A DNA stretch of 64,000 nt from Anaerolineales bacterium UBA3499 (GCA_002377585.1 DFQC01000007.1:2706-66705), one strand, 5' to 3'; counted from the stretch's first letter, positions 11,231-33,958 are shown. Translations and numbers: made by a program. The notes: generated from the letters alone by a model not told the origin.

Positions 11231-12565
11231 CTAATCACGAGCATATTGCCTTAGTTGTTTTTTGCCTCTGTCAACTATTTTGTGTGCCCGTTTCTCAGCT
11301 TCATACAAGATTTGTTCTTCGTCAAGAGTCTTTAGTTCTCGATTCCGCATCAACCAATTTCCATTCACCATAACATCGCAAACATCGCTACCTTTTACAC
11401 AATGAACAATGTTGGCAACAATATTGTGGACTGGTCTGAGGTGCGGAGCATTCATATCTAGTAATATTAAATCAGCTGGAGCACCAACTTTTAGCATACC
11501 ATGGTCTGACATTCCTACTGCTTTTGCGCCAGCTTGAGTAGCCATACGTAACGCAGTATCTCCTGACACCATAGCTGGGTCAACCGTCTGATATTTGTGA
11601 ATAAGGGCAGTTTGTCTAATAACAGCGAACATATCCATATCCGCATTAGACCCAGGTCCATCTGTCCCTAAAGAGATTTGCACACCAGCATCAACACACT
11701 TTTGTATAGAAGGAAAAGGCATAGCTAGTTTCATGTAGGTAATGGGACAGTGAGGAACTATGACATTCTTGTTCACAAGTATTTCAATGTCTTTATCATC
11801 CACATGTAGTGTGTGCGCTGCGATAGTGACGTCTGGTAAATCGAAAATACCGAGTTTATCCAGATACTGGACTGGACTCAATTTGTATCGTGCAATAGAC
11901 TGATCTACTTGTTCCTTTGTTTCTGCAACATGTAGATGAATACCCTTTCCTAGCTCATGGGCAATTTCCACGGTTTTACGAAGAAAATCATCCGGGCATA
12001 AATATGGTGAATGTGGCCCAATATATGTTTTGATTTTACCCTTTGAAGTTTTATCAAGTTCTTTTATCCAATCTATAGTTTCATCAAGTCCTGATCCCAC
12101 TTCAGTATCTTCCCCCATGCCAAATACAGTCCATGTTAGAGCTGCCTTAAGACCGCTTTCTTGCACCGCGTCAGCTACACGATGCATATAAAAATATTTG
12201 TCATTATAGGCAACTGTACCTGAGCGAATCATTTCAGCTGCAGCTAGAGCGGCAGCCCAATAAACATCATCGGGTGTAATCCCACTTTCAGCAACCCAGA
12301 TGGCTTCGAGCCACTCAACAAATGGAAGATCCTCGGCCCATCCTCTCACCATATTCATTGGGCTGTGGCAATGGGAATTTACTAGTCCGGGCATAGCTAC
12401 TTTATTTGTGCAATCGACTGCAGTGCTAGCGAATTGATCGTTTTCGGAATTGCCTATTTCCGTTATGATGCCATTTTCGACTACTAATGTAACGTTTTTG
12501 TGAATAGTCCCTTTTTCATCAAGTGTTATTACATCAATATTGCTAAGAGATGTTCTATTAGTCAT
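11231..12565 (-). CDS. Amidohydrolase-superfamily deaminase (MtaD/SsnA/TRZ-ATZ, guanine-deaminase-like group)
   Basis: PGLVNSHCHSPMNMVRG (HxH), HLHVAETKEQV, and GTDGPGSN. 444 aa. Confidence 0.75.
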   Translation of the reverse strand: MTNRTSLSNIDVITLDEKGTIHKNVTLVVENGIITEIGNSENDQFASTAVDCTNKVAMPGLVNSHCHSPMNMVRGWAEDLPFVEWLEAIWVAESGITPDDVYWAAALAAAEMIRSGTVAYNDKYFYMHRVADAVQESGLKAALTWTVFGMGEDTEVGSGLDETIDWIKELDKTSKGKIKTYIGPHSPYLCPDDFLRKTVEIAHELGKGIHLHVAETKEQVDQSIARYKLSPVQYLDKLGIFDLPDVTIAAHTLHVDDKDIEILVNKNVIVPHCPITYMKLAMPFPSIQKCVDAGVQISLGTDGPGSNADMDMFAVIRQTALIHKYQTVDPAMVSGDTALRMATQAGAKAVGMSDHGMLKVGAPADLILLDMNAPHLRPVHNIVANIVHCVKGSDVCDVMVNGNWLMRNRELKTLDEEQILYEAEKRAHKIVDRGKKQLRQYARD

Positions 12566-12587
12566 AAGTATAAACCTAACATCTGTA

Positions 12588-13829
12588 TTATTGTTTAGCT
12601 GCTTCTAGCTTTTTGCAGTCAATGAGATAACTCTCTGCAATAGCAGCATACATTGCAACTGTGTTGGTGAGACTGTCGATTTGAACCCATTCATTAGCTG
12701 CATGTGCATTACCACCTGTTGGTCCAAAACCACACAAAGTGGGAATGCCCGAGTTGATTAGCATATAACCTTCATTGGCAGGACCAGCTCCAACAGCCTC
12801 CCATTTTCTGTCAGTTGCTCTTTGTGCTACATCAATAGCTATAGATACTAAGGGATGATTATCTTCTAAAGCTACTGCTGGTAAACTGTTTTTTACTCTC
12901 AGTTCCACCTTGAGTCCGGGCCGTATTTTCATTTCATGATTCACCAACAAGTTTATTTGCTCAAGAACAATGTTGGGATCCTGACCTGGCAACAATCTGA
13001 TATCTACAATTGCTGCAGCATTGGCTGGTACCACACTCTCAAACTCACCACCTTTGAATATAGTTCCTGGAGTTACCACATTGCGCAGATTGCCAAATGC
13101 TGGATGAGGTGGTGCATCGATAGTTGTAGCTTCAAGCTTGAGCAAAATAGCTGCCAATCCAGTGACTGCATTCGTACCTTCTATGCCGTCATTCCATTCT
13201 TGGCCACCGGTATGTACTGATTTACCAGTTGTTGCTATCTCCAATCTCAGTAGACCGCGGTGTCCAATACAGACTACATCGCTAGCATACGTATATATTG
13301 CTCCTTTAGCTTGAATCAGGTTATTGTCCAAAAGATGCCTTACACCAATATTGCTTGTGGCACCAGATTCTTCATCAGAAACCGCAGCCAAAGTTATCTT
13401 AATATTCTTATTGTCAATAAGACGCAAATCTTTCATCATGGAAATAGCGTATAGGGCACAGGCTGCTCCAGCTTTGTTGTCAGCTGTACCACGACCGTAA
13501 ATTCGACCGTCGCGCTTGGTAGGTTTGAATGGAGGAGATGACCAGGCTTCCTCTGTTCCGGCAGCTACAGTGTCCATGTGAGCAACGAACAGGAATTCAA
13601 ATGGCCCTTCACCATGACTTATCAAAACGTTGGGCCTGTTCTTATCTAAAGCTTCTACTTGTGATTGGAGATTAAGTTTATGTGCTTCTTCTGCTATACG
13701 ATTCGCAGTATCTTTCTCGCTGTTTGATCCATTGACGGATTTTAAAGAAACCAGTTCGTCCAGAAAACTTACTATATTATCTTCTAGGGATTGGGCAGAT
13801 GATTGCAGCTTTTTAAGCGGTGTTAGCAT
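12588..13829 (-). CDS. M20-family metallohydrolase (ArgE/DapE/acylase-like)
   Basis: FVAHMDTV, GTADNKAG and VSDEESG motifs. It is separated by 3 nt from the upstream nucleoside hydrolase gene. Confidence 0.75.
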   Translation of the reverse strand: MLTPLKKLQSSAQSLEDNIVSFLDELVSLKSVNGSNSEKDTANRIAEEAHKLNLQSQVEALDKNRPNVLISHGEGPFEFLFVAHMDTVAAGTEEAWSSPPFKPTKRDGRIYGRGTADNKAGAACALYAISMMKDLRLIDNKNIKITLAAVSDEESGATSNIGVRHLLDNNLIQAKGAIYTYASDVVCIGHRGLLRLEIATTGKSVHTGGQEWNDGIEGTNAVTGLAAILLKLEATTIDAPPHPAFGNLRNVVTPGTIFKGGEFESVVPANAAAIVDIRLLPGQDPNIVLEQINLLVNHEMKIRPGLKVELRVKNSLPAVALEDNHPLVSIAIDVAQRATDRKWEAVGAGPANEGYMLINSGIPTLCGFGPTGGNAHAANEWVQIDSLTNTVAMYAAIAESYLIDCKKLEAAKQ

Positions 13830-13832: not shown

Positions 13833-14813
13833 TCAAGAAAGCGCTCTTTCTACTATCTGCAAGAATTTCTCTGTAGATATCTCAGTCACCAAATTTGCGT
13901 TTGGTGTTTTGCCACTAAAACCCATCCAATCCACCATTGATTGGCCGCGAGACAGTCCAGATGCAGTTTCAACTGTGACGTATCGCTGTTCAGATCTTGT
14001 GATGACATCTGATTCAAGAACTACTGCTATTGCTATTGGATCTGGAGCATAAAATATCCTTTCTCCAGCAGAACCTTCTACGCTGTAGCCTTCCTCTTTG
14101 CTTACTAAAAAGCTTTCTATGCTGGCCAGCGTTTTTCTTGAAATCTTTTCAAAAAATTTAGCTCGCTTTGAATCTATAGCAAACAATCTGCTGAGATTAT
14201 TTGCATCAATTGGGTGAGCTAGACTTATCTCCCAGTCAACAATTGTAACCATCGGCCATCTAGATAGCACCATTCTAGCTGCTTCGGGATCACGATAGAA
14301 GTTGTATTCCGCAGTGTAATTGCTAGTGTTGCCTTGGGCTCTTATGGCACCACCCATTATGGTTAAGCTACGATATTTTTCTGGTAAGCTAGGGTCAAGC
14401 ATTAGTGCCACAGCTATGTTTGTTAATGGACCTAATGCTACAAGGTCTAGTGCCCCTGCATATTTGTTCCCATATGAACATATGGCTTCAGCTGCGTGAC
14501 CATTTACAGGCTCAATCGATGCTGGTGGAATATCAGCGTCACCAATGCAGTCACCAAGACCATCGTTGCCATGAAACCCTGCTGCGTCTTCAACTGGATT
14601 ATCTAGCAGTGAATCACCACAACCCACGTATATTGGTGCATCTATATCTAATATCTCAACCAATTTGCATGCATTTTCAGTAGTGTGTTCTAGATCTACG
14701 TTGCCAGCAACAGTAGTAATAGCTTTTATTTCTGTGTCGGGATGTGCGCTGGCCATCATAATGGCTAGAGCATCGTCGACACCAGGATCTGTATCTATTA
14801 GTAAGGTTTTCAT
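13833..14813 (-). CDS. Nucleoside hydrolase NH1 (IUNH family)
   Basis: N-terminal [12 protein letters not shown] (DxDxxxDD) and GPLTNIA. The position of the leaving-group His reads YAPDPIAIA, so His is replaced by Pro. Confidence 0.85.
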   Translation of the reverse strand: MKTLLIDTDPGVDDALAIMMASAHPDTEIKAITTVAGNVDLEHTTENACKLVEILDIDAPIYVGCGDSLLDNPVEDAAGFHGNDGLGDCIGDADIPPASIEPVNGHAAEAICSYGNKYAGALDLVALGPLTNIAVALMLDPSLPEKYRSLTIMGGAIRAQGNTSNYTAEYNFYRDPEAARMVLSRWPMVTIVDWEISLAHPIDANNLSRLFAIDSKRAKFFEKISRKTLASIESFLVSKEEGYSVEGSAGERIFYAPDPIAIAVVLESDVITRSEQRYVTVETASGLSRGQSMVDWMGFSGKTPNANLVTEISTEKFLQIVERALS

Positions 14814-14873: not shown

Positions 14874-15875
14874 TTAACCGAACAATTCGAGTATCTGGTC
14901 TGTTTCGCGCTTGTTCTTATCTTGACTGTTTATGGAAGCAAGGTATGCAATTAGTTCCTCTGTGCCTGGCAGCTTGGTGCCAGCTCCCCATACTGTGGTG
15001 GCAAGTGCGCCAAGTACATTAGCAAGCATACCGGTTGCTCTAATATCTATTTTGGATAGCCACCCCAAAATTATCCCAGCTGTGAATGTGTCGCCCGCCC
15101 CAGTTGTATCAATGGTCTTTACCTTATACGATGGTAGCGTTATACATTCGTCTGAATTAGCCAAGACACATCCTTTACCACCCAATTTTACCGCTACTAG
15201 TTCTGGTCCCTGGGATAGGATTTTCTGAGCTATAGTGTGAGGATCACTGTGGTCAACCAAATAACAGGCCTCTTCATATCCTAAAATACATATATTGAGC
15301 TTCGGTATTACTGCACGGATATCTGAGGTGCTGTCAAACACTGGTCTAATGCTAGTGTCCATACTTATAGGAATATCATTTGATTGCGCAATATCTATAG
15401 CATTCAGCAATGTAGGTCTATTCGAAGAGCGAGTTAAAGGGTGGCCGGTAACCTGTAGCATATCTGTGTTAGATATTATGTGAAGTGGGAATTTATGAGT
15501 GTTATCCCAAATGTTGGCGCCCCATGCATTGAAAAAAGTTCGTTCTCCTCCTTTGCTTACTACAGCAAAATTAAGTCCTGTTTTTACTCCTGGTAGTACG
15601 GATACTCCTGATATGTCTACTCCGGTTTGCCTAAAAGCTTTAGCTGCTAAATTCCCCCAGTTGTCGTCCCCAATACAACCTATGAGCTTAGCGGTTACGC
15701 CGAGCTTAGATAGTGCGATTGCAGTATTGCCTACAACTCCACCAGTTTCAACACTATATGAGGGGGCCCCGGCATCATCTCCCTCTTGAGGATATTTATC
15801 TATAGGCATCGTGACATCTACATTTATAGGCCCTAGTAGACACACACTTGCTGGTAAGCGAAGTTTGGGTGTCAT
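14874..15875 (-). CDS. PfkB/ribokinase-family kinase K1
   Basis: DTTGAGDTFTAG anion-hole/catalytic motif and an N-terminal GPINVD sugar-lid region. It overlaps the upstream TrpF-like gene by 4 nt. Confidence 0.8.
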   Translation of the reverse strand: MTPKLRLPASVCLLGPINVDVTMPIDKYPQEGDDAGAPSYSVETGGVVGNTAIALSKLGVTAKLIGCIGDDNWGNLAAKAFRQTGVDISGVSVLPGVKTGLNFAVVSKGGERTFFNAWGANIWDNTHKFPLHIISNTDMLQVTGHPLTRSSNRPTLLNAIDIAQSNDIPISMDTSIRPVFDSTSDIRAVIPKLNICILGYEEACYLVDHSDPHTIAQKILSQGPELVAVKLGGKGCVLANSDECITLPSYKVKTIDTTGAGDTFTAGIILGWLSKIDIRATGMLANVLGALATTVWGAGTKLPGTEELIAYLASINSQDKNKRETDQILELFG

Positions 15876-16546
15876 GTACTAGTATTACCTCTTGCAGCCT
15901 CACAGAAATTGGCAATGCGAACCATGTCTTTACGTACTTTATCCCCTTCAATATTGGTAGATGTGTTGCTATCTACTCCCCATGGCTGTACTGTCTGGAT
16001 TGCCTCGAGTACATTCTCACTAGAGAGTCCACCAGCCAATATCACAGGACATTTGACCTTTTCGACTATTTTCTTGCTGATATTCCAATCGTGTGTTTTC
16101 CCAGTGGCGCCTACTCCGGGCAATCCAGAAACTTTTGTGTCCAGTAAGAGATAGTCGCATGTAGTGGAGAATGCTTCAGCAAGGTCGATACTATTGTTAC
16201 CTTCGACTGGCAGTGCCTTCATTAATTGTGTCTGTGAGCCTAGCCTGATCCGTAAATCTCTCATAGCTTGTACATCCAAATCAAAAGGATCAGTTGATAT
16301 ATGTACTATGTCGGGTCTCACGAATTGTGCCATGGCCACAATTTCTTCAATGTCAGTAGACATAGTTAGTGCAACGGAAGTGCTAATTCCGCTTACGGCA
16401 TTTACAATGCTAGCAGATGTTTCCAGACTAAGTTCACCATACACTTTGCCGTAATCTCCAGCTACGAATCCAATTTGATCCACACCTAGATTTGCAGCGG
16501 TAATAGCATCCTTAGCGTTTGAGAAAGCATAAATTTGAATAATCAT
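15872..16546 (-). CDS. TrpF-like (phosphoribosylanthranilate isomerase fold) protein A
   Basis: GATGKTHDW, PVILAGGLSSENV and YLLLDT are TrpF-like. The N-terminus reads MIIQIYAFS where TrpF has K-I-C-G, so the general-base Cys is replaced by Tyr. No trp genes are nearby. Confidence 0.65.
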   Translation of the reverse strand: MIIQIYAFSNAKDAITAANLGVDQIGFVAGDYGKVYGELSLETSASIVNAVSGISTSVALTMSTDIEEIVAMAQFVRPDIVHISTDPFDLDVQAMRDLRIRLGSQTQLMKALPVEGNNSIDLAEAFSTTCDYLLLDTKVSGLPGVGATGKTHDWNISKKIVEKVKCPVILAGGLSSENVLEAIQTVQPWGVDSNTSTNIEGDKVRKDMVRIANFCEAARGNTST

Positions 16547-16698
16547 GAATAATTGTATTGTCAGTATTTACTTATGTATTATACTTGTGCTCCAGAATTT
16601 GCTTCTCGATTGTTATCTGAAATTGTTCTCTTACCAACATCAAATTTAAGTTTGTGTGTGAGTGAAAAGTTGGAGTAGAGATAATCATCATGTTATAA

Positions 16699-16776
16699 GT
16701 ACAACAATTGCGCGAACGTTCGTTGGCGGATATCTTACTAACCCAATCGGATAGTTATCACAGTCAATAGTTGTAC
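16699..16776 (+). promoter_or_regulatory. Inverted repeat plus palindrome in the divergent control region
   Basis: The arms gtacaacaattg (16699..16710) and caatagttgtac (16765..16776) match in 11/12 positions as an inverted repeat. The perfect palindrome cgaacgttcg (16713..16722) lies between them. The right arm abuts the AAGGAG Shine-Dalgarno sequence of the GTG start at 16791. Confidence 0.3.
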
Positions 16777-16790
16777 AAAGGAGTATTAAA

Positions 16791-17756
16791 GTGAGCACTA
16801 AGATTATCATGGATGTAGATACAGGTACAGATGATGCGGTAGCTATTATGACTGCAGCATTATCTCCTGACATTGATCTGTTAGGTATCACCACAGTTAA
16901 TGGCAACTGTCCAGTAGAGATATGTACAGAGAATACTCTCCGGGTTGTTGACCATATAGGTGCAAAAATCCCTGTCTATCATGGTTGTAGCTTACCTTTG
17001 TCTGCTACCTTAACTCCTGGTAGAAAACCAAACATACCTGCTGTAGAACCACACACCATTCATGGTCATTATCTTGATTTACCTGCTGCTAGTTCAAAAA
17101 AGCAAGGTGCTACTGCAGTTGAGTGGCTGGTTAATACGTACTTAGAGTCAGATGGCGATATAAGCTTGGTACCAGTTGGTCCACTAACAAATGTTGCGAT
17201 GGCGATACGACAGGCTCCTGAAATATTGGATAAGATTCCGGAGATAGTAATCATGGGTGGCGGGCACCATGTTGCAAATTGCACTTCATCTGCGGAATTT
17301 AATATCTGGGTAGATCCTGAAGCAGCCCGTGTTGTTATGAATTGTGGTCGTCCTATTAGATTAGTAACACTTGATGCAACACACGAAGCATTGTTTACAA
17401 TGGAAACATGTGACGCTTTGAAAAAAATAGGGACCCCAGCTGCTGTTTGTGCTGCGGCTTTTGCTGAGGTTCGTATTTCTGCTTATGATAAAGCGCAGCC
17501 CATGGCATCAGCTGGAAGCGCTCCTATCCATGACGCCTTAGCAGTATGTGCAATTATTAATCCCGAAGTGATATCGACTGTATATGCACATGTCGATGTT
17601 GAGACTATGGGTGAGTTAACGGATGGTCGTACGGTAGTTGACATCGATCGATCTGGTGACCGAGGTCGTCGACCTCCAAATGCTCATGTTGCATTGCATG
17701 CAGACGAAGAGCTTTTCGTTGAAATGATGTTGGATATTTTATCTAATGAGATCTGA
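16791..17756 (+). CDS. Nucleoside hydrolase NH2 (IUNH family)
   Basis: DVDTGTDDAVAI, GPLTNVA, and the catalytic-His context APIHDALAV. GTG start with an AAGGAG Shine-Dalgarno sequence. Confidence 0.85.
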   Translation: MSTKIIMDVDTGTDDAVAIMTAALSPDIDLLGITTVNGNCPVEICTENTLRVVDHIGAKIPVYHGCSLPLSATLTPGRKPNIPAVEPHTIHGHYLDLPAASSKKQGATAVEWLVNTYLESDGDISLVPVGPLTNVAMAIRQAPEILDKIPEIVIMGGGHHVANCTSSAEFNIWVDPEAARVVMNCGRPIRLVTLDATHEALFTMETCDALKKIGTPAAVCAAAFAEVRISAYDKAQPMASAGSAPIHDALAVCAIINPEVISTVYAHVDVETMGELTDGRTVVDIDRSGDRGRRPPNAHVALHADEELFVEMMLDILSNEI

Positions 17757-17827
17757 ATGTTCGCATTTATGTTTATTGCGGACCTACAAAAATATATAAG
17801 CATAAGTTTTGGAGGCGATGTTGCATT

Positions 17828-18676
17828 ATGAGCACTAAAGATAAGAATAGCAAAGTACGTGTCAGAGGTGAGAGTTCGATTAATCCTGGAATATTTACTG
17901 GCAAGAAATTGGTGTATGGGATGATACATTTGCTACCACTGCCAGGGACCCCATTTTATCAGTCTGGAAATGTAGAAAAGTCGCTCGAAAAAGCTATTGC
18001 TGATGTAAAGGCATTAATTGCTGGCGGTGCTGATGGTTGTGTTGTTCAGACTATTGACCAAATCTATCCAGTGGGTCAAGATGTGGACCCTGCTAGACTT
18101 GCTGCGTTTGCCATCATAGTGAAAGCAGTCAAAGAACATAGCCCTAAAGATTTCCATGTAGGTGTACAGATCCTATGGAATGCATTGGAAGCTTCCTTGG
18201 CTGTAGCAAAAATATGTGGTGGTGTGTTTGTTCGATCTAATGCACTTGTAGGCTCTACAATGACTGCTGCTGGTGTGGCTGAATCAGACCCTATTAGCCT
18301 TGTCGAATACAGAAATAAGATTGATGCACATGATGTGTCATTGTTGGCGGAAATTGAGAGTATGCATTTTAGTTGGTTGAACGGTAAGCCACTTGTTGAT
18401 GTGGCAGCAGAGGCTATTAGAGTTGGTACAAATGGTGTGGAGATAGCTCATCCTGAAGAGGACGTTTGTTTGTCTATGATTGCCCAACTAAAAGACAAGT
18501 ATCCAGAGTTACCAGTTATTGTAGGTGGTCATACCAATCACGAAAATGCTGCCAGAATTTTAGCCCAAGCTGATGGGGCGCTTGTTGGGTCATGTTTTGA
18601 ACCTCAAGGTTGGGGTTCAAATGTAGACGCAAGTAAGGTGGCTGAATATGTTGATATAGTGAGTAATATTAGCTAA
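17828..18676 (+). CDS. BtpA/SgcQ-family TIM-barrel protein
   Basis: YGMIHLLPLPGTPFY is the hallmark N-terminal segment of the BtpA family. 282 aa. Confidence 0.7.
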   Translation: MSTKDKNSKVRVRGESSINPGIFTGKKLVYGMIHLLPLPGTPFYQSGNVEKSLEKAIADVKALIAGGADGCVVQTIDQIYPVGQDVDPARLAAFAIIVKAVKEHSPKDFHVGVQILWNALEASLAVAKICGGVFVRSNALVGSTMTAAGVAESDPISLVEYRNKIDAHDVSLLAEIESMHFSWLNGKPLVDVAAEAIRVGTNGVEIAHPEEDVCLSMIAQLKDKYPELPVIVGGHTNHENAARILAQADGALVGSCFEPQGWGSNVDASKVAEYVDIVSNIS

Positions 18677-18752
18677 TATAGATGATGGATAGATTTTATG
18701 CTTACTAAGCATAGTTTGTGGTCGTGGAAAACACCAGTAAAAGAGGGCTGAT

Positions 18753-19169
18753 ATGGATGTAACTGTAGCTCTAGCTGTAGTAGCAATGATTGGAATGGGG
18801 ATTAATTCTTTCGGTAACAAACTAGGAGCTGCGCAAGGGGTTTATGCGCCTCCTTTTCTACTTATTATAAATATAATGTACTGTGTTGCGGCTCTAGTGC
18901 TTCATGTTGTTCAGAAACAACCATTTATAATATCATCGAAGATGATTGGTCTAGCTTTGTTAATTGGTTTATGTGGATCTATAAGTTACGTGAGTATGTT
19001 TACAGCATTTGAGTTAGGTGGAGAGGGCAGCATACTGTTTCCGATCAGAGGATTATCGGTTGTAGTTGCTGTTGTACTATCGATACTCTTTTTTAAGGAG
19101 CCAGTGACTCTTAATCGTCTGTTGGGATTAACTTTAGGTGTCAGTTCGATATTGATATTGTCACGCTGA
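18753..19169 (+). CDS. Half-size DMT/EamA-like membrane transporter (138 aa), paralog of 42..458
   Basis: Same length and same motif positions as 42..458 (FELGGEGSI, FFKEPVT, ...LILSR). Confidence 0.6.
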   Translation: MDVTVALAVVAMIGMGINSFGNKLGAAQGVYAPPFLLIINIMYCVAALVLHVVQKQPFIISSKMIGLALLIGLCGSISYVSMFTAFELGGEGSILFPIRGLSVVVAVVLSILFFKEPVTLNRLLGLTLGVSSILILSR

Positions 19170-19223
19170 ACAATGTTTTGTTGAATACATATACTAGGTG
19201 GTCAGTGTCACAGAGATAATCAA

Positions 19224-19898
19224 GTGAAGATACAGATATATAGTCATAAAACCCCCGAGGATGTATCTGCCAGTGTCGAATTAGGAGTTGATTTCATTGG
19301 CGTTGCTACCGGTGAACTTGGTAGGCTTCCTGACGAAGTGTCTTATTCTATGTGTGGAACTATCTTTTCATCTGTACCGACAGAATCTAATGTTAGCAAG
19401 GTGGCTCTTACAGTGGCTAGCGAGCTTGATGAGATTGTTGAAACAGTGGTTAAGACCAATCCAGATGTAATACATCTTTCAGGTGATATTAGCGCTATGT
19501 CAGTACAAGATGTAGCAGAATTACGGCGTGCAGTACCGGACACAAAAATCATGCAAGCCATTCCAGTAAAGGATGATGCTTCGATTAGTCTATCTTTAGA
19601 ATATCAACTTGTATCTGATTATATTATTTTGGATACTGATATCGAATCATATACTGGTATTGGCGCTACCGGTAGCACACATGATTGGAGTGTAAGTCGT
19701 AAGATTGTAGCTGCCGTAAATATACCTGTAATATTGGCAGGAGGACTAAGTCCAGAAAATGTAGCGGATGCTATTAAGCTTGTTAGACCTTGGTGTGTAG
19801 ATTCGTTTACACACACTAACATGGCTAATTCTAAACTCAAGGACCCTAACAAAATTCATCAGTTCATCAAATCGGCACGAAATTGGTCGCAAACCTAG
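19224..19898 (+). CDS. TrpF-like (PRAI fold) protein B
   Basis: 224 aa, alignable end to end with 15872..16546 (GATGSTHDW, PVILAGGLSPENV, YIILDT). The N-terminus MKIQIYSHK again has Tyr in place of the TrpF Cys. GTG start. Confidence 0.65.
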   Translation: MKIQIYSHKTPEDVSASVELGVDFIGVATGELGRLPDEVSYSMCGTIFSSVPTESNVSKVALTVASELDEIVETVVKTNPDVIHLSGDISAMSVQDVAELRRAVPDTKIMQAIPVKDDASISLSLEYQLVSDYIILDTDIESYTGIGATGSTHDWSVSRKIVAAVNIPVILAGGLSPENVADAIKLVRPWCVDSFTHTNMANSKLKDPNKIHQFIKSARNWSQT

Positions 19899-20866
19899 AG
19901 TCAGGTACGGTAGTTATACTGGGTGATGCCTGTGTAGACATGGTTGTAAAGTCTGACAGGGATTCTACAGGGAAGGAATTAAAAACTAGGCCAGAGCTTA
20001 CTTGTGGAGGATCAGCTGCTAATACAGCAATGATCTTGTCACAATTGGGTGTTTCTGTGGCGTTTGTCGGAGCTGTAGGAAGAGATGCTTTTGGCAATAT
20101 AGTTACTGGAAGTTTGTCGGCATCTGGAGTTGATATCTCTAAGTTGATACAGATTGATAATGCATATACAACTGTTGTCATAGCTGTTGTATATTTTGAT
20201 GGCACACACACTATGAAAGGCTGGCCAGTAGATGGTGGTGCTGACCTAATGCTTGAATCAAGCCACGGTGATATTAGTGTTTTCAATAACCCTATATGGT
20301 TGCATAGTACTGGTTTATCTATTGTAAAGGATCCTGCCAGAGAAACAGTGTTGCGTGCTATGTACTGTGCGCGGAGCGAAGGTGTGCCCGTATCATTTGA
20401 CCTAAACATGCACGGAAGTTTAGGTCACATAGATGGAGTGCTAAAAAGCCAGTATGAGCATGATCTTAGAGAGGCCATCGAATTGTCAGATTGTGTTTTC
20501 GGATCAGCAAGTGACGAGATTGCCTTATTGTATCCAAATGAAAATATGAATCAGGCAGCCAGAGAGCTTGCAGGTATGAACCGTACGGCTATATCTCGGA
20601 GAGGTGAACTTGCAGCAATTTGTGTATCCGGCCGAGAATTAATTGAGTCCAAACCGTTTCAAGTTGACACAGTTGATGCCATTGGTGCAGGAGATGCTTT
20701 CAACGCTGGATTTATAGCAGCGCAGTTGGAAGGTTTGTCTATTGATAGATCTTTGCAGTGGGGACATGCCACCGCGGGTCTAAGTATTAAGACAGTTGGT
20801 TCAGGCGGTAAATTTAATAGGACTGATGTATTAAGGTTTATAGAACAACAATCGAAGTTGGTGTAA
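19883..20866 (+). CDS. PfkB/ribokinase-family kinase K2
   Basis: VVILGDACVDMVV N-terminus and DAIGAGDAFNAG motif. The TTG start overlaps the TrpF-like gene by 16 nt. Confidence 0.8.
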   Translation: MVANLESGTVVILGDACVDMVVKSDRDSTGKELKTRPELTCGGSAANTAMILSQLGVSVAFVGAVGRDAFGNIVTGSLSASGVDISKLIQIDNAYTTVVIAVVYFDGTHTMKGWPVDGGADLMLESSHGDISVFNNPIWLHSTGLSIVKDPARETVLRAMYCARSEGVPVSFDLNMHGSLGHIDGVLKSQYEHDLREAIELSDCVFGSASDEIALLYPNENMNQAARELAGMNRTAISRRGELAAICVSGRELIESKPFQVDTVDAIGAGDAFNAGFIAAQLEGLSIDRSLQWGHATAGLSIKTVGSGGKFNRTDVLRFIEQQSKLV

Positions 20867-20877: not shown

Positions 20878-21858
20878 ATGAATTTATCTAATAAACAATC
20901 TATACCAGTCATTGATTTAACTCCGCTTTATTGGGGCGATTCACAGGCTATGGATACTCTAGTACAGCAAGTATATGATGCATACTCCGAAATTGGGTTT
21001 GCCTATATAACTAATCATGGAATTGCCAATGATCTCATTGACAACGTGTTCAATGCTTCTCGTCAGTTCCATGCCTTGAATACTGAAGAAAAGTTGCGAA
21101 TTGAAATTAACCAATTTCATCGTGGATACATACCTATTAATACTTCTACTGATAGAACGAGCGAGATAGAAAAAGCTGTGAGGCCAAATCAGAGCGAATC
21201 CTTTATGATGCTGCATGAATTAGCGCATGATGACCCTGATCTGCTACAGAGGGCTCCACTTGCTGGTCCCAATCAATGGCCATCTGATATTGAAGGATTT
21301 AAGGAAATAATTACAGGTTATCATGATAGACTAGCAGGGTTATCACATAAGCTAGTAAAGGTGTTTGAGTTGGCTCTCAATACTGATAGTCTGTCTCAGC
21401 ATTTTGTCAAACCTACCACTTGGTTACGTTTGTTGCATTATCCATCGTTAAGTATGGAAGACCCCGAAGATCTTTTTGGTTCTAATCCACATGTTGACTA
21501 TGGATTTATAACAATATTGGCGCAGGATGAGGTCGGTGGGCTACAGGTTAGGAGTGTTACTGGTGACTGGATCGATGTACCTTACAGAAAGGATTGTTTT
21601 GTCATGAATACGGGTGAGGTTCTACGCCATTGGAGTAATGGTAAGCTTTTGGCTACACCTCATAGAGTGGTAAACAGAACAGGTAAGGAAAGGTATTCGT
21701 GCCCATTTTTCTTTGACCCCAATATTCATTCCCGTATTAGTACGTTGACTAGCTGTATGGATACAGGGGAACAGAGCAAATATGCAGACTCCGTTTTTGG
21801 TGATATGGTGATGAATCATTTACAATCAAATCATGATCAACATGATAAAAATAAGTGA
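20878..21858 (+). CDS. 2-oxoglutarate/Fe(II)-dependent oxygenase (IPNS-like family)
   Basis: The H-x-D...H facial triad is present in context (NPHVDYGFITILAQD ... TPHRVVN). The N-terminus shows the non-haem dioxygenase region. Confidence 0.75.
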   Translation: MNLSNKQSIPVIDLTPLYWGDSQAMDTLVQQVYDAYSEIGFAYITNHGIANDLIDNVFNASRQFHALNTEEKLRIEINQFHRGYIPINTSTDRTSEIEKAVRPNQSESFMMLHELAHDDPDLLQRAPLAGPNQWPSDIEGFKEIITGYHDRLAGLSHKLVKVFELALNTDSLSQHFVKPTTWLRLLHYPSLSMEDPEDLFGSNPHVDYGFITILAQDEVGGLQVRSVTGDWIDVPYRKDCFVMNTGEVLRHWSNGKLLATPHRVVNRTGKERYSCPFFFDPNIHSRISTLTSCMDTGEQSKYADSVFGDMVMNHLQSNHDQHDKNK

Positions 21859-27019: not shown

Positions 27020-27964
27020 ATGGAATCTCATAAACTTATCCTCGACACTGATCCAGGTGTTGATGATTCAATGGCTATTGCTTTAATAGCAAATTCTCCT
27101 GAAATTACTTTGCATTCAGTCACTACTATTTTTGGTAATGGACCTGTATCTTTGTCTACTGAAAATGCGTTAAGAGTCTTAGATATAGTTGGTCTTAGTC
27201 ATATCGAGGTGTTTGAAGGTGCTAACAAACCTCTACTTCGAGAGTTTGGTGGCGAAGGTGCCAGAGTGCATGGTAGTGATGGTTTGGGCGAGACTTTTAT
27301 GCCTCCTTCCCCCCGAAGTGCTGGCTCTGAATTTGCAGCAATTCACATCGTAAATTCAATTATGTCTCATCCCGGTCAGATTACGCTTGCAGCGATTGGT
27401 CCTTTAACCAATTTGGGATTAGCACTATCGATCGAACCACGAATAGCCGAGAATGTAAAAGAAGTGGTTATTATGGGTGGGGCAGTAGATGTGCCTGGTA
27501 ATGCATCACCATTGGCAGAAGCTAATATTCATAATGATCCCGAGGCAGCTAGTCTGGTGTTTGGTGCAGATTGGCATCTTACAGTTGTTGGTCTTGACGT
27601 TACTACACAAGTGCTGATGGATGCTAAGTATCTAGCGTCTCTTGCTAAAAGCCAAACACCCACTACTGATATGATTGCGGCGATTACTCCGCATTATTTG
27701 GATTTCCACAAGAAGTATAGGAATGAGACTACTATGCCAGTACATGATTCATCAGCTATAGCATATTTGGTCAAACCGGATTTGTTTTTAACGAAGAAAT
27801 TGTATGTTGATGTTATTAAAGGGGAACATCCTTGCAGTGGTCAGACAGTTGCTGATTGGAAAAATCATTGGGGCAGAGAACCCAAAACAAATGTTTGTCT
27901 AGGTGTGAATGCAGACGAAATGTTAGCCATGTATATAAAACGAGTGGGAGGAAGCAAGAGATGA
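27020..27964 (+). CDS. Nucleoside hydrolase NH3 (IUNH family)
   Basis: [19 protein letters not shown], and [10 protein letters not shown] with the catalytic His present. Confidence 0.85.
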
Positions 27965-29046
27965 CTCAATCTATTGATGCGAAGCGCTTATACAACCATG
28001 TTCTTGGTGGACTTGCTGGAGCGGGCATGGGAGATGCGCTTGGAGCTGCTACGGAACAGTGGCATCATACTGAAATATTTGCAAAGTTTGGAGGACCACT
28101 CAGATCGTTTCAGCAACCTCCTCCAGATACTTGGTCCGGAGCAGAGAGTAACAAGCTTGGTCAGGTAACTGATGACGCTAGTCAGATGTTCTATTTGGCA
28201 CATAAACTTATAGAGTGTGATGGGTCACTTACCCATGATGATTGGGTTGCGTGTCTATTGCAGTGGGCAGACGAGTCTCCTCATGTGGGTAACATGGGGC
28301 CTACTACTCGATTGGTAGTACAAGCTCTCAAGGAAGGCACAGATCCTAACCTTGTAGGTGTTATTGGTACATCAGACAGACAGCCAGCATCGCATGGAGC
28401 CACAAATGGTGCAGCCATGAGAGTGGCACCGGCAGGATTGATTCATCCTGGGAATCTTGATGCAGCTTGTGATACAGCTCTTATTACGTGTATACCATCG
28501 CACTCGACTCAGATCGCTATTTCTTCTGCATGTGCAATAGCTGCTGGTGTGGCCCATGCGCTTGAAGAGGGCGCAGATGTCTTTTCCGTAGTAAAGGCTT
28601 GTTTATATGGTGCACGTCGGGGTGAAGAGCTTGCCAAGGAACATGGACGCATCGTGCCAGGCCCGAGTATTTTAGTCAGGAGTGAGCTCGCTGTTAATTT
28701 AGCACTTAAGGCTGAATCTTTACCTGAAGCAATCAAATTGATAGAAGACAGTATAGGTAATTCTGTAGATGCTTGTCAGTCAGTACCAGCTGCTATTGGT
28801 CTTTTTGTGTTTGCAGAGGGAGACCCGTTGGAGTCGATAGTAGGAGGTACTAATATCGGCAATGACACTGATACGATAGCAGCAATTGCTGGGTCTCTTG
28901 CCGGCGCGCTTCGTGGTGTTGATGCTATGCCAAAAGATATGTTTGAAACTTTCTGGCAAGCCAATGCTGATGATGAATTTGATATCAATGAACTGGCTGA
29001 GGGACTTACAAAAATCGCTCTTAACAATCAAGGAGGATCTTCATGA
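27961..29046 (+). CDS. ADP-ribosylglycohydrolase (ARH/DraG) family protein
   Basis: [20 protein letters not shown] and [17 protein letters not shown] motifs. The ATG at 27961 forms an ATGA overlap with the NH3 stop. The track's longer N-terminus (27856) only overlaps NH3. Confidence 0.8.
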
Positions 29047-29963
29047 CATCTGTAATTATTGATTGTGATCCTGGTCATGATGATGCGTTAGCCATTCTTT
29101 TGGCTGCTAAACATTTGGACGTACTGGGGATTACTACGGTATCGGGCAATGAATCTATTGATAACGTTACTACTAACGCTCTAAAGTTGGTGGAGGTTGG
29201 TAATTTGACTCATATACCTGTGGTGCGTGGTGCTGAAGGACCGTTACTTCGTGAAGCTGTTTATGCACCTCAGGTGCATGGCAAATCGGGTATGGATGGT
29301 GCTGAAATTCCAGAGCCTACTACCAAGCTCAAAGAAGGTCATGCGGTCGATTTTATTATCGATACTGTTATGAGCACATCTGACGTAGTGCTTTTGCCTA
29401 TGGGCCCATTAACGAATATAGCATTGGCTTTAAGAAAGGAACCAAGACTTCGTGATCGAGTCAAGCTTATGAGTATTATGGGAGGAAGCAGCACTAACGG
29501 GAATATTACACCTACCGCTGAATTCAACATATATGTTGATGCTGAAGCAGCTGATATAGTGTATCAGTCGCAAATTCCTATGTTGATGTCTGGTCTTAAT
29601 TTGACTCGTCAGGTTTTGGCTAAACAAGAACATATTGATGAGATTCGAGCAATTAATAACCCTACAACCAGTGTGGTAGCTGACCTACTTACCTTCTATT
29701 TAGCAACTAGCACACGGCATAGTCATGATGGTGCTGCGATGCATGATCCTTGTGCTGTTGCTGCTATTATAGATCCCACCCTCATAGAATTTGAACCAAT
29801 GCATGTTGCTGTAGAGACAGCAGGTGCTCATACCTATGGCATGACTGTTTGCGACGATAGACCTGGGTCGGTCAAGTCAAAAGAAGCTAACGTGGAAGTT
29901 GCTGTCAAAATTGATAGCGACCGTTTCTTTAAGCTGCTAATTGATACACTAAGGATGTACTAG
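29043..29963 (+). CDS. Nucleoside hydrolase NH4 (IUNH family)
   Basis: DCDPGHDDALAI, GPLTNIA, and AAMHDPCAVA with His present. It overlaps the ARH gene by 4 nt. Confidence 0.85.
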   Translation: MTSVIIDCDPGHDDALAILLAAKHLDVLGITTVSGNESIDNVTTNALKLVEVGNLTHIPVVRGAEGPLLREAVYAPQVHGKSGMDGAEIPEPTTKLKEGHAVDFIIDTVMSTSDVVLLPMGPLTNIALALRKEPRLRDRVKLMSIMGGSSTNGNITPTAEFNIYVDAEAADIVYQSQIPMLMSGLNLTRQVLAKQEHIDEIRAINNPTTSVVADLLTFYLATSTRHSHDGAAMHDPCAVAAIIDPTLIEFEPMHVAVETAGAHTYGMTVCDDRPGSVKSKEANVEVAVKIDSDRFFKLLIDTLRMY

Positions 29964-29991
29964 GGCTCATTTGAGTCTTGCGTAATATATA

Positions 29992-30939
29992 GTGTCTGGC
30001 CGTAATATCTTCCTTGATGTTGATACAGGAGTAGATGATGCGTTAGCGTTACTCTTAGCTGCTAGGTCACCTCAGCTTAATGTAAAAGGTGTGACCTGCG
30101 TAGCTGGTAATGTACCCATAGATAGAGTTGTGAGAAACACTTTGGATATATTAAATGTTGCCGATGCGTCTCATATTCCAGTTGCTAGGGGTATGGAGTT
30201 TCCGCTAGTGGAAAAAATGTTTAATGCTACTGAAATACATGGAGAAAATGGGTTGGGAGGTATAGATTTGCCTGCTAGCCGCTCTACAGTTATTGATAAG
30301 CATGCAGTGGAATTTCTGGCCAGGGAAATCGATAACACTTCGGAGAAGGTGACTATTGTGGCGCTTGGACCGCTGACTAACATAGCTACTTTGTTTCGTA
30401 TTTACCCGAATGTTGTCTCGAGTATTGAGCAGCTCGTTATCATGGGTGGTGCAATAGGATCTGGTAATACAACTCCTACTGCTGAATTTAATATTCGTCA
30501 GGATCCTGAAGCAGCTGATGTGGTGTTCAATATGGACGTACCTACTTTGCTGTACGTATGGGATGTTTTTACTAGAGTGCGTTTTGACAAGCAAGAAGTG
30601 GATGAAATGATTGCCAGTGACAACAATTGCAAGTCAATTGCGGGTAAATTGCTGTTGTCTTATTTGACTACTAAGAAAGAAGATACTGCGGGCATCGGAG
30701 ATGCTGGTGCGGTAGCATGTTTGTTGATTCCAGAAGAGATAACTACAGCTGTTATGCCAATATCTGTGGAACTTATCGGGGAACACACACGAGGACAGAC
30801 TGTATTTGACCAACGAAAACGGAAACTAAGTAGACTGCAACCTAAAATACAAAAATCCATAAGTGGAATGACAGAAGTAGTTATGGATTTAGATGTGGAA
30901 AGTTTCCGGAATGCTTTTGTAGATAATATTGTGAAATAG
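29992..30939 (+). CDS. Nucleoside hydrolase NH5 (IUNH family, His-less variant)
   Basis: DVDTGVDDALAL and GPLTNIA. The His position reads AGIGDAGAVA, so His is replaced by Gly. GTG start. Confidence 0.8.
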   Translation: MSGRNIFLDVDTGVDDALALLLAARSPQLNVKGVTCVAGNVPIDRVVRNTLDILNVADASHIPVARGMEFPLVEKMFNATEIHGENGLGGIDLPASRSTVIDKHAVEFLAREIDNTSEKVTIVALGPLTNIATLFRIYPNVVSSIEQLVIMGGAIGSGNTTPTAEFNIRQDPEAADVVFNMDVPTLLYVWDVFTRVRFDKQEVDEMIASDNNCKSIAGKLLLSYLTTKKEDTAGIGDAGAVACLLIPEEITTAVMPISVELIGEHTRGQTVFDQRKRKLSRLQPKIQKSISGMTEVVMDLDVESFRNAFVDNIVK

Positions 30940-30950
30940 GTTAGACAATC

Positions 30951-31901
30951 ATGGTTCCCAAAAAGATTTATCTAGATGTTGACACTGGAGTAGATGATGC
31001 CCTGGCATTGCTTTTGGCTTCAAGGTCTCCAGACTTGGACATTAGAGGTGTTACATGTGTGTCTGGAAATGTTCCGGTTGATCTTGTGGTCAGAAACACT
31101 CTGGACGTATTAGAAGTTGCTGGTGCATCTCATGTACCAGTTGCCAGAGGTATGGATGTGCCTTTGCTGGAGACTATGGTAAATGCTGCAGAAATTCATG
31201 GCAAGAATGGATTGGGCGGGATTGAGATTGCACAGAGTGTATCGGAGCCATTAAGTGTGCATGCTGTAGAGTTCTTAAGAAGAGAACTAACAGATGTTTC
31301 AGAGCCGATTACAATTGTTGCCCTTGGCCCACTTACCAATATCGCTACATTAATACGCGCATATCCTGAAGTGGTGTCGAAGATAGATGAAATTGTTGTT
31401 ATGGGTGGTGCAATAGGACCCGGTAATGTTACTCCTACGGCAGAGTTTAATATCCGTCAGGATCCTGAAGCAGCTGATATAGTATTTGGTTCTGGTATAC
31501 CTATATTGCTGTATATTTGGGATGTGTTTATAAAGGTAGCATTTGTTCGTTCTGAGATAGAATCGTTCTCTAATAGCAGCAACAACAGTGTTGCTCTGGC
31601 AGGAAATTTACTCATGTCAATGTTAGATAGATTTGGCAGACCTAAAACTAGTATTGGTGATGCAGGAGCAGTTGCGTGTATATTAAACGCTAACGCAATA
31701 ACAGCGAAGCAATTACCTGTTGCGGTGGAATTGTCTGGCAAATATACTCGTGGTCAAACTGTTGTTGACCAACGTCCCCCGGATTTGGCTGATCTTGAAG
31801 AAGGCGATTTGCAAGTTGTGATGCCAAATACTATACGGGTCGTAGTTGATGTGGACGTGAATGGTCTTCGAGATACATTTGTCGAACATCTTGGAAAATA
31901 A
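30951..31901 (+). CDS. Nucleoside hydrolase NH6 (IUNH family, His-less variant; tandem paralog of NH5)
   Basis: It shares long identical runs with NH5 (LDVDTGVDDALALLLA, VARGM, TIVALGPLTNIATL, TPTAEFNIRQDPEAAD). The His position reads TSIGDAGAVA. Confidence 0.8.
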   Translation: MVPKKIYLDVDTGVDDALALLLASRSPDLDIRGVTCVSGNVPVDLVVRNTLDVLEVAGASHVPVARGMDVPLLETMVNAAEIHGKNGLGGIEIAQSVSEPLSVHAVEFLRRELTDVSEPITIVALGPLTNIATLIRAYPEVVSKIDEIVVMGGAIGPGNVTPTAEFNIRQDPEAADIVFGSGIPILLYIWDVFIKVAFVRSEIESFSNSSNNSVALAGNLLMSMLDRFGRPKTSIGDAGAVACILNANAITAKQLPVAVELSGKYTRGQTVVDQRPPDLADLEEGDLQVVMPNTIRVVVDVDVNGLRDTFVEHLGK

Positions 31902-31922
31902 ACTAAGTATAAAAGGAGTATT

Positions 31923-33050: not shown

Positions 33051-33958
33051 GTGAAAAATACCTTGCTCTGGGAGGTATTATTATCGATGACCTTGTGCAT
33101 GAGGATGGAACTACATCGATGGGCGTGCTTGGCGGAGGTGGGTTATACGCAGCACTAGGGTCTCGAATTTGGTCAGAAGACGTTTGTATGGTGGCTAGAG
33201 TTGGACGGGATTTTAATATTACATCTATATCTGAAAAAGGATTACGTACAGAATATATTGAGTTGACTTCTTTACCTACACCACGTGCATGGCAGTTGCT
33301 TGATAGCAATGATGAGCGGACGCAAATCCCTCGGGTGTCAGCTGAGGACTGGTACTCACAGTTAGTAGTTGAGCAACATGATATACCAGATATCAGTAAC
33401 CTCACCGGATTGCATATCTTGGGGAGAGGTTCAGAAGCTGAGTATGACATAATGAGCCTATACTCTAAGAAAGGGACTACAATAAGTTATGAGCCTGTTG
33501 TCGATCACAATACAGACACTAAGCGAATTGCCGCTATCATACGGTGTTTGCGAATGGTGAATATATTCTCACCAGACCTACTGGCATGCGAAGTATTAGC
33601 GGATGTGCAAGATCCTACTGATGCTGGAAGATGGTTTGCTGAACGAGGACCTCAAGTTGTGGTACTACGCATGGGCAAGCAAGGTGCTATGTTATATGAG
33701 TCGGACCATAATGAAGTGTGGAAGATACCCTCTTACGCAAACCGTATAATTAATACCGTTGGTGCTGGTAACGCATTTTGTGGTGGTTTCTTAGCAGGCT
33801 GGTGTCCAAACCATGACATATCTGATGCAGGTGCTAGCGCTGCTATTAGTGCTTCAATTACAATGGAGAACTTAGGTCCTCCAACAGTTTCGGTAGATTT
33901 ATCTGAGCGAGCTTTGGAATTACACAGACAGTTTGTACCAAGGATTTCTAAGCAATGA
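33047..33958 (+). CDS. PfkB-family protein K3 with GAGN motif (catalytic Asp replaced by Asn)
   Basis: PfkB fold signature NTVGAGNAFCGGF and N-terminus LALGGIIIDDLVHEDG...GGGGLYAALG. Paralog of 39075..40016. The TTG start overlaps S1 by 4 nt. Confidence 0.7.
   Translation: MSEKYLALGGIIIDDLVHEDGTTSMGVLGGGGLYAALGSRIWSEDVCMVARVGRDFNITSISEKGLRTEYIELTSLPTPRAWQLLDSNDERTQIPRVSAEDWYSQLVVEQHDIPDISNLTGLHILGRGSEAEYDIMSLYSKKGTTISYEPVVDHNTDTKRIAAIIRCLRMVNIFSPDLLACEVLADVQDPTDAGRWFAERGPQVVVLRMGKQGAMLYESDHNEVWKIPSYANRIINTVGAGNAFCGGFLAGWCPNHDISDAGASAAISASITMENLGPPTVSVDLSERALELHRQFVPRISKQ

Follow-up and report, generated by a model that had tools for sequence, protein, structure and literature searches.

What function is served by two proteins that resemble phosphoribosylanthranilate isomerase (PRAI, or TrpF) when they are encoded amid genes for nucleoside use and without a single accompanying trp gene? 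The question is raised by a stretch of 64,000 nucleotides (nt) from Anaerolineales bacterium UBA3499 (GCA_002377585.1, DFQC01000007.1:2706-66705), hereafter called the window, in which positions are counted from the first letter. Two open reading frames (ORFs), located at 15872..16546 on the minus strand (barrel A) and at 19224..19898 on the plus strand (barrel B), encode TrpF-like barrels, and each of them overlaps a gene for a PfkB-family kinase. In the PRAI of Thermotoga, Cys7 is the general base and Asp126 the general acid of an Amadori rearrangement, and both TrpF and BtpA lie within the ribulose-phosphate-binding-barrel group. A sequence-only reading of this locus had proposed that the two barrels, which carry Tyr at the place of the general-base Cys, do not take part in tryptophan biosynthesis. 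This proposal is well supported by the analysis described below, as is the assignment of the barrels to a second step that follows a riboside kinase.

Both ORFs are 224 amino acids (aa) in length and, as had been claimed, they align end to end, with 42% identity over the full length (E 4e-58). Barrel A begins with MIIQIYAFS, and barrel B, which has a GTG start and belongs to a separate sub-clade, begins with MKIQIYSHK. The Pfam PRAI family (PF00697) is matched by barrels A and B with 64.3 and 59.4 bits, respectively, against a cut-off of 22.7. An AlphaFold2 model of barrel A, built on 49 homologs, has a predicted local distance difference test score (pLDDT) of 96.3, and a Foldseek search with this model returned the PRAI proteins of Thermotoga, Pyrococcus and Thermus as the closest solved structures (E 4.6e-15 to 3.7e-13; 21-26% identity; TM-score 0.83-0.92 when normalised by the target and 0.75-0.80 when normalised by the query). 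For the top matches 1dl3, 1lbm and 1nsj these TM-scores are 0.87-0.92 and 0.78-0.80, with 24-26% identity to T. maritima PRAI. Barrels A and B are thus members of the TrpF/PRAI superfamily by fold and by Pfam assignment. However, the best scores on the NCBI TrpF equivalog models are 105.8 bits for barrel A and 97.2 bits for barrel B (cut-off 215), and neither protein reaches any of the 13-16 models scored, whose cut-offs range from 172 to 380 bits. The barrel gene of the window is also ~98% identical to that of a marine metagenome-assembled genome, Anaerolineales UBA3001.

The substitution at the catalytic position withstands alignment with a characterised enzyme. When barrel A is compared by phmmer with T. 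maritima PRAI (1lbm/1nsj), IQIYAFSN falls against VKICGITN, which places Tyr6 opposite Cys7, and LLLDTK falls against ILLDTK, so that Asp126 is retained. The end of strand β1 carries Tyr6 and no Cys in both barrels, and the general-acid Asp is Asp136 in both, within LLLDT in one and IILDT in the other. The motifs GATG(K/S)THDW and PVILAGGLS(S/P)ENV, which had been pointed out as TrpF-like, are likewise present in the two proteins. Profile scans of the ORFs across the entire 64-kb window revealed no trp gene, and nucleoside hydrolases surround the barrels, in agreement with the context that had been described.

A change at one residue in two paralogs could be a local curiosity, but the same change defines a branch of the family. 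An exhaustive search of 1.84 billion representatives clustered at 50% identity yielded 1,220 with E <= 1e-10. Within the top 150 of these, the β1 strand ends in Q-I-Y in 71, in Q-I-F in five and in the canonical K-I-C in 33, the remainder being mostly fragments, and nearly all of the 120 closest homologs start with M-I-[IV]-Q-I-Y-A-F-T. We compared 68 full-length representatives of this QIY branch with the 33 nearest canonical ones, using T. maritima numbering. Position 5 is Lys in 100% of the canonical set and Gln in 100% of the QIY set; position 7 changes from Cys (100%) to Tyr (94%) or Phe (6%), and position 81 from Gln (100%) to His (84%). In addition, Gly134 is replaced by Ala, and the β8 loop reads D-S-x-T-x-T, often with Lys or Arg, where canonical members have D-V-S-S-G-V. 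The acid Asp126, in contrast, is kept in 99% of the branch, which has likewise preserved the AGGL..NV motif of β7, the HDW loop and the KD...F motif at the C-terminus. The residues that directly follow the Tyr are fixed inside each sub-clade and differ between sub-clades (AFT, SHK, AATS or SI). The expectation that the Tyr variant would form a clade of its own is therefore borne out. The position of Arg36, which binds the anthranilate carboxylate in T. maritima, lies in a β2-α2 loop that is highly variable in both groups.

The branch is widely distributed. A collection of species genomes, searched with an alignment of 12 sequences, contains at least 588 stretches matching a QIY barrel. The best 80 of these are all from Chloroflexota (Anaerolineae) with one exception from Vicinamibacterales, and include the isolates Thermanaerothrix daxensis, T. 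solaris, Levilinea saccharolytica and Pelolinea submarina. A second sub-branch, with the motif I-T-Q-I-Y-S-I, is found in Bacillota, namely in Oscillospiraceae (Neobittarella, Anaerotruncus), Halanaerobiaceae and Solobacterium. Since hundreds of homologs share this Tyr, the acid Asp and an adjacent kinase gene, we judge that the pattern is not due to chance. Every named QIY member is annotated in the databases as ‘phosphoribosylanthranilate isomerase’. A literature search found no publication that describes the branch and surfaced only work on PriA and a precedent from Chlamydia TrpF. We consider the QIY branch to be a TrpF-derived barrel with a rebuilt set of active-site residues at β1, β4 and β8 and with a new operon partner, and to be new to the literature as searched. 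The nearest canonical representatives come from Pirellulaceae, an archaeon or metagenomes. Those K-I-C representatives that lie closest to the branch (P0201, P0203, P0205, P0210 and P0217) mostly carry Asp at the Arg36 position and G-x-x-H after β2, and may constitute another atypical TrpF subgroup.

The operon partner is a ribokinase-like protein that appears to have been adapted to a substrate other than ribose. Kinase A (14874..15875, minus strand) is 333 aa in length and matches Pfam PfkB with 174 bits, and kinase B (19883..20866, plus strand) is 327 aa in length and matches with 141 bits. The overlaps of 4 and 16 nt that had been reported between barrel and kinase genes agree with our reading of the DNA: the stop codon of barrel A and the start codon of kinase A form the sequence ATGA, whereas the 16-nt overlap in the second pair depends on a putative start for kinase B, inferred from a TTG at 19883 that is the sole start codon 5' of the conserved ‘ILGD’ motif. 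The ribokinase equivalog model TIGR02152, with a cut-off of 299.65, gives 133.8 bits for kinase A and 81 bits for kinase B, so that both fall well short of RbsK. On the model for pseudouridine kinase (cut-off 540) they reach no more than ~32 bits, and they remain far under the cut-off of the FrlD model. A canonical ribokinase is encoded elsewhere in the window, apart from the barrel-coupled kinases (46237..47166, plus strand; TIGR02152 340.3 bits).

In an alignment of E. coli ribokinase and 47 partner kinases we inspected the residues that contact ribose (N14, D16, K43, N46, E143 and D255). Asn14, Asp16, Gly41-Gly42, Asn46 and Asp255, the catalytic residue, are present in all 47. Lys43 is absent from every one of them and gives way to Ala, Ser, Thr or Val (Val in kinase A and Ser in kinase B), and Thr223 is changed to Lys in 44. 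Judging from these residues, the coupled kinases look as if they are built for a ribofuranose ring and not for free ribose. Because Lys43 is absent throughout and the window holds a separate canonical ribokinase, we infer that the substrate is a riboside or another C1-substituted derivative of ribose.

The association between barrel and kinase is conserved well beyond this locus. ORFs were called and clustered in 80 genome loci plus the window, and barrels were located by a hidden Markov model search of all ORFs. PfkB is the immediate downstream gene in 50 of the 67 Chloroflexota cases, with an overlap of exactly 4 nt in 30 of those, and it directly follows the barrel in five of the seven Bacillota loci (L089, L092, L093, L094 and L095); of the remaining two, one has a PfkB gene followed by two barrels and the other an orphan barrel. 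The pair can also stand as an isolated two-gene unit, as in L006. The order QIY-PfkB-nucleoside hydrolase-M20-amidohydrolase is conserved in L008 and L010-L013. A more elaborate Anaerolineae cluster reads GntR - (PfkB, nucleoside hydrolase) - Bmp-type ABC importer - ADP-ribosylglycohydrolase - amidohydrolase - QIY - PfkB - (PfkB) - YjbQ - two nucleoside hydrolases - PfkB - (PfkB) - SIS - BtpA - PfkB, and a Halanaerobiaceae contig and another from Bacillota have Bmp-type ABC importer - two nucleoside hydrolases - QIY - PfkB - nucleoside hydrolase. The kinase and nucleoside hydrolase neighbours that the sequence-only reading had led us to look for thus recur in both phyla, together with the ADP-ribosylglycohydrolase, the Bmp-type importer and deaminases, and because the same cluster genes are present in Anaerolineae and Bacillota, the nucleoside context can be regarded as conserved across the two. 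No trp operon was found among ~90 QIY loci. Several loci carry more than one QIY paralog (two in the window, L011 and L012; three in L091), alongside expanded sets of nucleoside hydrolases and kinases.

How, then, might a TrpF-derived barrel follow a kinase? We propose that each barrel would be the second enzyme of a two-gene module in which the partner is a dedicated ribokinase-like PfkB protein. The kinase would phosphorylate, at its 5 position, a ribofuranosyl compound (a riboside or ribosylamine) that is imported by nucleoside-type transporters, and free ribose would be left to the ribokinase of the island. The barrel would hold this 5-phosphate at the β7/β8 site, and Asp136 would open the furanose ring. 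Isomerisation between C1' and C2' would then follow; for an aglycone N-linked by way of an exocyclic amine, this would be a step of the Amadori type. The lost thiolate base would be replaced by Tyr6, possibly aided by the new His82 and by Gln4, and the resulting sugar would enter pentose-phosphate metabolism.

Action on the kinase product, with ring opening by acid catalysis, is suggested by the fold, the acid Asp, the phosphate motif at β7 and the close coupling of the barrel gene to the kinase gene. For the subsequent step, the simplest guess is an isomerisation, either Amadori-type or aldose-ketose, because such chemistry is known for the scaffold and because Chlamydia TrpF provides a precedent for a ribosylamine phosphate that does not carry anthranilate; by this analogy, Amadori chemistry on a ribosylamine is plausible for the QIY barrels. 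The two or three paralogs per locus, the sub-clade-specific residues after the Tyr and the separate ribokinase suggest that the barrel recognises a variable aglycone and not plain ribose 5-phosphate. Ring opening by the barrel followed by isomerisation, on the 5-phosphoribosyl product of its dedicated kinase, is the reading we favour, but we hold it tentatively and would put its chances somewhat below even.

Several observations weigh against this favoured reading. In ordinary nucleosides the sugar is joined to a ring nitrogen, an arrangement that does not permit an Amadori rearrangement, and an Amadori substrate would therefore have to be an unusual exocyclic N-riboside. The β8 phosphate loop of the branch differs from that of TrpF. 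In the loci examined, no obvious enzyme for a ketosamine product adjoins the barrel-kinase pair, and although GlmS/FrlB-like SIS proteins are present in the same islands, an Amadori step followed by deglycation sums to mere hydrolysis. Moreover, Phe stands at the Cys7 position in five of 76 representatives (P0133, P0167, P0172, P0187 and P0189) that are scattered across the family, and locus L073 encodes such a Phe-bearing barrel (9953-10681) with its PfkB neighbour retained. Because Phe occurs there, including in a kinase-coupled barrel, Tyr may not be the base at all; the fixed His82 or another residue may serve instead, or the barrel may stop at ring opening and cleave. In P0172 the acid Asp is also replaced, by Glu. 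Finally, a sister clade with nearly the same active-site residues sits in his operons without a kinase.

This sister clade comprises 16 loci labelled Caldilineaceae or Anaerolineales (including L060:10001-10672, L046, L053, L055, L065, L067, L070-L072, L074 and L076), in which a barrel with the motif Q-I-Y-A-[AV]-T-S lies between hisA and hisF. The gene order in L060 is hisG-hisD-hisC-HAD-hisB-hisH-hisA-QIY-hisF-hisI, wherein the QIY gene overlaps hisF by 1 nt. NCBIfam cut-offs are reached by all but hisI, which passes that for monofunctional phosphoribosyl-AMP cyclohydrolase and not that for bifunctional HisIE, and the HisA, which scores 161.6 bits on TIGR01919 (cut-off 306.45), belongs to the monofunctional type. 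Four well-conserved differences separate the clade from the kinase-coupled A type (F8→A/V, A17→M, V58→S and P113→H), whereas Gln4, Tyr6, His82, Asp136 and the β8 motif are alike. One member, L082 from Vicinamibacterales, is nonetheless coupled to PfkB and has a nucleoside hydrolase nearby. In a neighbour-joining tree the his-operon barrels are monophyletic and nested inside the kinase-coupled radiation, and therefore the clade looks like a derived, secondary recruitment. By analogy with PriA, it could be the unrecognised TrpF of its hosts, or it could be an enzyme tied to phosphoribosyl supply. The histidine operons of these loci are complete, and purA and purH are found further downstream on the same strand run.

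A broader formulation, which we offer as possible but rather unlikely in its entirety, is that TrpF chemistry has been recruited to catabolism. Under this formulation, ribosides that resist nucleoside hydrolases would be phosphorylated at the 5' position by a pathway widespread in Chloroflexota and Bacillota, gut Oscillospiraceae among them, and a TrpF-derived barrel with Tyr, His and Gln in place of the Cys thiolate would then open or rearrange the phosphoribosyl group. The derived his-operon version may be an unrecognised TrpF or a new enzyme linked to His or phosphoribosyl pyrophosphate (PRPP) in Caldilineaceae-type bacteria.

The alternative that survives best, unlikely as we consider it, makes the barrel a pentose-5-phosphate aldose-ketose isomerase: hydrolases would release the free sugar, PfkB would phosphorylate it, and the barrel would make the ketose 5-phosphate for the pentose-phosphate pathway, acting as a functional counterpart of ribose 5-phosphate (R5P) isomerase or as a form of it for modified pentoses. 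In the his operons the same enzyme would provide R5P for PRPP, a version to which we give the same low credence. A single chemistry of this kind would cover the nucleoside-hydrolase islands as well as the clade in the his operons, in which the active-site residues are near-identical. It also accords with the split transketolase genes that adjoin the pair in L092 and L093, where they diverge from a unit formed by a pyridoxal phosphate (PLP) enzyme, QIY and PfkB; with the tolerance of Phe at the Cys7 position, which fits a base located elsewhere; and with the conserved His at the end of β4, which together with the Tyr would recall sugar isomerases that shuttle protons between O1 and O2. Yet a canonical ribokinase is encoded elsewhere in the window, Lys43 is missing from every coupled kinase, one common sugar phosphate would hardly account for the two to three barrel paralogs in a locus, and an RpiB-like gene lies near the barrel-kinase pair in some Pelolinea-type loci. 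We know of no TrpF-family member that isomerises an O-sugar.

Less probable still is a cleaving enzyme, in which the Asp would open the furanose ring once the riboside carries a 5'-phosphate, and cleavage at C1' would follow. Variants of this idea, which share its distinctly low standing, would have the barrel act as a hydrolase or deglycase of N-ribosylamine 5'-phosphates, as a reverse-Amadori deglycase of ribulosamine 5-phosphates (compare FrlD/FrlB), or as a non-homologous counterpart of PsuG in the PsuK/PsuG pair. Phosphorylation by a kinase followed by cleavage is an established pattern for pseudouridine (PsuK/PsuG) and fructoselysine (FrlD/FrlB), and it would suit a barrel that has lost its β1 base, retained its acid and tolerates Phe. 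GlmS/FrlB-like SIS proteins and further PfkB kinases occur within the same islands, and general scans of the nucleoside-specialised 64-kb window revealed no PsuG-type gene. On the other side of the ledger, the branch has no specific catalytic Lys or other nucleophile that we could find, the scores of the partner kinases on the pseudouridine kinase model are as low as noted above, the idea is purely inferential, and no TIM-barrel glycosidase of such a kind is known to us.

The least probable of these alternatives is that the barrels, at least those of the his-operon clade, are genuine TrpF enzymes using Tyr in place of Cys. This is very unlikely for the two copies in the window, whereas the his-operon clade may have a biosynthetic or even a TrpF role. 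Family membership and the TrpF label in every database speak for this possibility, as does the position of the his-operon clade between hisA and hisF beside a HisA of the monofunctional type, which echoes the PriA enzymes that supply TrpF activity from a his operon. However, the two window copies are each coupled to a kinase of their own within a nucleoside island that has no trp gene, no trp operon appears among the QIY loci, the scores lie far below every TrpF equivalog cut-off, Lys5 and Cys7, which are invariant in TrpF, are both substituted, and the tree gives the his-operon clade a derived appearance. Two further roles were set aside: a ThiE-like function, considered in view of a weak TMP-TENI match and a YjbQ neighbour, was rejected because that match does not reach its threshold and the kinases resemble ribokinase, and an analogue of ribose-1,5-bisphosphate isomerase was judged unlikely because the clusters hold nucleoside hydrolases and not phosphorylases.

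The surroundings of the two pairs form a riboside-utilisation island that extends from ~11 kb to 47 kb of the window. It contains six nucleoside hydrolases, one ADP-ribosylglycohydrolase, the two QIY barrels, one BtpA protein, two GlmS/FrlB-like SIS proteins, eight PfkB-family genes, an adenosine deaminase, a TRZ/ATZ (MtaD-like) deaminase, M20, M29-like and M42-like hydrolases, a 2-oxoglutarate (2OG) oxygenase, an MFS nucleoside-symporter-like protein and a CUT1 ABC importer. The nucleoside hydrolase paralogs begin at 13833, 16791, 27020, 29043, 29992 and 30951 and the ADP-ribosylglycohydrolase at 27856, all within 18 kb (13833-31901). Six hydrolases and one glycohydrolase make up a riboside-cleaving repertoire of unusual size for a single locus. 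One of the eight PfkB-family genes encodes a protein of 601 aa with merely a partial PfkB domain (47153-48958).

On the minus strand, the run of barrel A continues downstream of kinase A with a nucleoside hydrolase (13833..14813; PF01156 269 bits) and with the TRZ/ATZ-type (MtaD-like) deaminase and an M20 deacylase (11231..13829). A second nucleoside hydrolase (16791..17756, plus strand; PF01156 271.7 bits) is divergent from barrel A, and the AT-rich intergenic region of 244 bp between the two genes (16547..16790) is, from its sequence, the probable control region common to both. As had been noted earlier, a BtpA/SgcQ-family barrel of 282 aa lies between the two QIY barrels (17828..18676, plus strand; PF03437 133 bits against a cut-off of 30). 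It scores 134.1 bits on TIGR00259, below the subfamily cut-off of 153.4, and has no sequence relative in the PDB; its score of 118 on the photosystem BtpA equivalog, for which the cut-off is 400, indicates that it is not the photosystem protein. A small EamA-type membrane protein (18753..19169, plus strand; PF00892 38.4 bits) is located directly upstream of barrel B, and a 2OG-Fe(II) oxygenase with DIOX_N and 2OG-FeII_Oxy domains (20878..21858, plus strand) is located downstream of kinase B. The rest of the island, at 27020..36077 on the plus strand, consists of four nucleoside hydrolases, the ADP-ribosylglycohydrolase, two GlmS-like SIS proteins and two PfkB proteins. It is conceivable, by analogy, that the oxygenase acts on modified ribosides, given that demethylation of 2'-O-methyl nucleosides has been shown for another family of 2OG oxygenases (PMC12709175, 2025). 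Upstream of the island, two xanthine-dehydrogenase-type molybdopterin subunits together with FAD and 2Fe-2S subunits (1306-7398) and an isochorismatase-family hydrolase (549-1259) probably serve the oxidation of released bases. ORFs without a Pfam match lie in or beside the island (36188-37357, 41822-43318 and 63212-63916), and a protein of 321 aa (10195-11160), which has no NCBIfam match and is aminopeptidase-like by eye only, recurs alongside the cluster in L008, L011 and L013.

Other genomes add further observations on these clusters. BtpA is encoded within eight genes of the QIY gene in 21 of the 67 Chloroflexota cases, usually in a trio of SIS, BtpA and PfkB, and a recurrent trio or quartet of GlmS/FrlB-like double-SIS, BtpA and PfkB genes is seen in the window (31923-36077), L001 (16861-19744) and L004 (12677-15492). 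The trio resembles the kinase-plus-deglycase logic of fructosamine catabolism, and the combination of an M42 peptidase with BtpA recalls the E. coli sgc operon. A bona fide purD gene, for phosphoribosylamine-glycine ligase (TIGR00877 347 bits, cut-off 288), resides inside nucleoside/QIY clusters of Pelolinea- or Brevefilum-type genomes, adjoining an M42 peptidase gene; it is upstream in L029, L037, L039, L040, L051, L056, L057, L061, L063 and L068 and downstream in L049 and L075. Its presence is a hint that phosphoribosylamine may link to the pathway. In the Ruminococcaceae locus L091 (5505-8693), three adjoining QIY paralogs are accompanied by two PfkB genes, two ADP-ribosylglycohydrolases and a nucleoside hydrolase, as well as by an M29 peptidase, RtcB and a gene of the CCA/poly(A) polymerase family. 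The PLP enzyme of the Solobacterium-type loci L092 (6790-9652) and L093 (5679-8645) is PatB/MalY-like (C-S lyase family), scores 288 bits where the cut-off is 340, and is translationally coupled upstream of QIY-PfkB.

These findings matter for annotation as well as for biochemistry. Thousands of database entries in the QIY branch bear the name ‘phosphoribosylanthranilate isomerase’, which is very probably wrong for the kinase-coupled members, and a trpF may consequently be credited in error to Anaerolineae and to some gut Clostridia when their metabolism is reconstructed. The branch is also a natural experiment in the evolution of (βα)8-barrels, in that an essential Cys and an invariant Lys have been exchanged while the acid Asp and the β7 phosphate motif have been kept. 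Furthermore, the conserved kinase-barrel pair marks a step in the microbial use of nucleosides and ribosides, which are a significant pool of organic matter in marine and gut environments, and this step is accessible to direct test with two small soluble proteins.

Comparison with known systems places the QIY pairs between several precedents. The E. coli yegTUV and Bacteroides rus loci share with the islands a nucleoside-type transporter, ADP-ribosylglycohydrolase, PfkB, nucleoside hydrolase and often a GntR regulator, although neither has a TrpF-like barrel. The operon logic matches that of PsuK/PsuG and FrlD/FrlB, where a PfkB-family kinase acts first, on a riboside or ketosamine, and a second enzyme then opens the sugar ring and cleaves or rearranges the bond at C1, but those second enzymes are of unrelated folds (the PsuG fold and SIS) and the QIY kinases fall far under the PsuK and FrlD cut-offs. 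HisA and PriA are related phosphoribosyl Amadori isomerases, and the TrpF-type activity of PriA in a his operon recalls the his-operon QIY clade; they belong to another family, however, with Asp/Asp catalysis and two phosphate sites, and HisA coexists with QIY in those operons. With TrpF/PRAI itself (T. maritima, 1NSJ/1LBM) the branch shares the (βα)8 fold, the Pfam family, Asp126, the GxGxxHDW loop, the β7 AGGL..NV motif and the C-terminal KD...F, and it differs by Lys5→Gln, Cys7→Tyr, Gln81→His, Gly134→Ala, the change of the β8 loop from ‘DVSSGV’ to ‘DS.T.T’, sub-cut-off scores and kinase coupling. The Chlamydia TrpF carries out an Amadori rearrangement on the product of RibA (GTP cyclohydrolase II), an N-ribosylamine 5'-phosphate other than phosphoribosylanthranilate (PRA), as part of folate biosynthesis, while it keeps PRA isomerase activity and complements E. 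coli trpF mutants (PMC4161248). Unlike the QIY pairs, this enzyme is neither kinase-coupled nor catabolic, yet it is the direct precedent for an Amadori substrate other than PRA.

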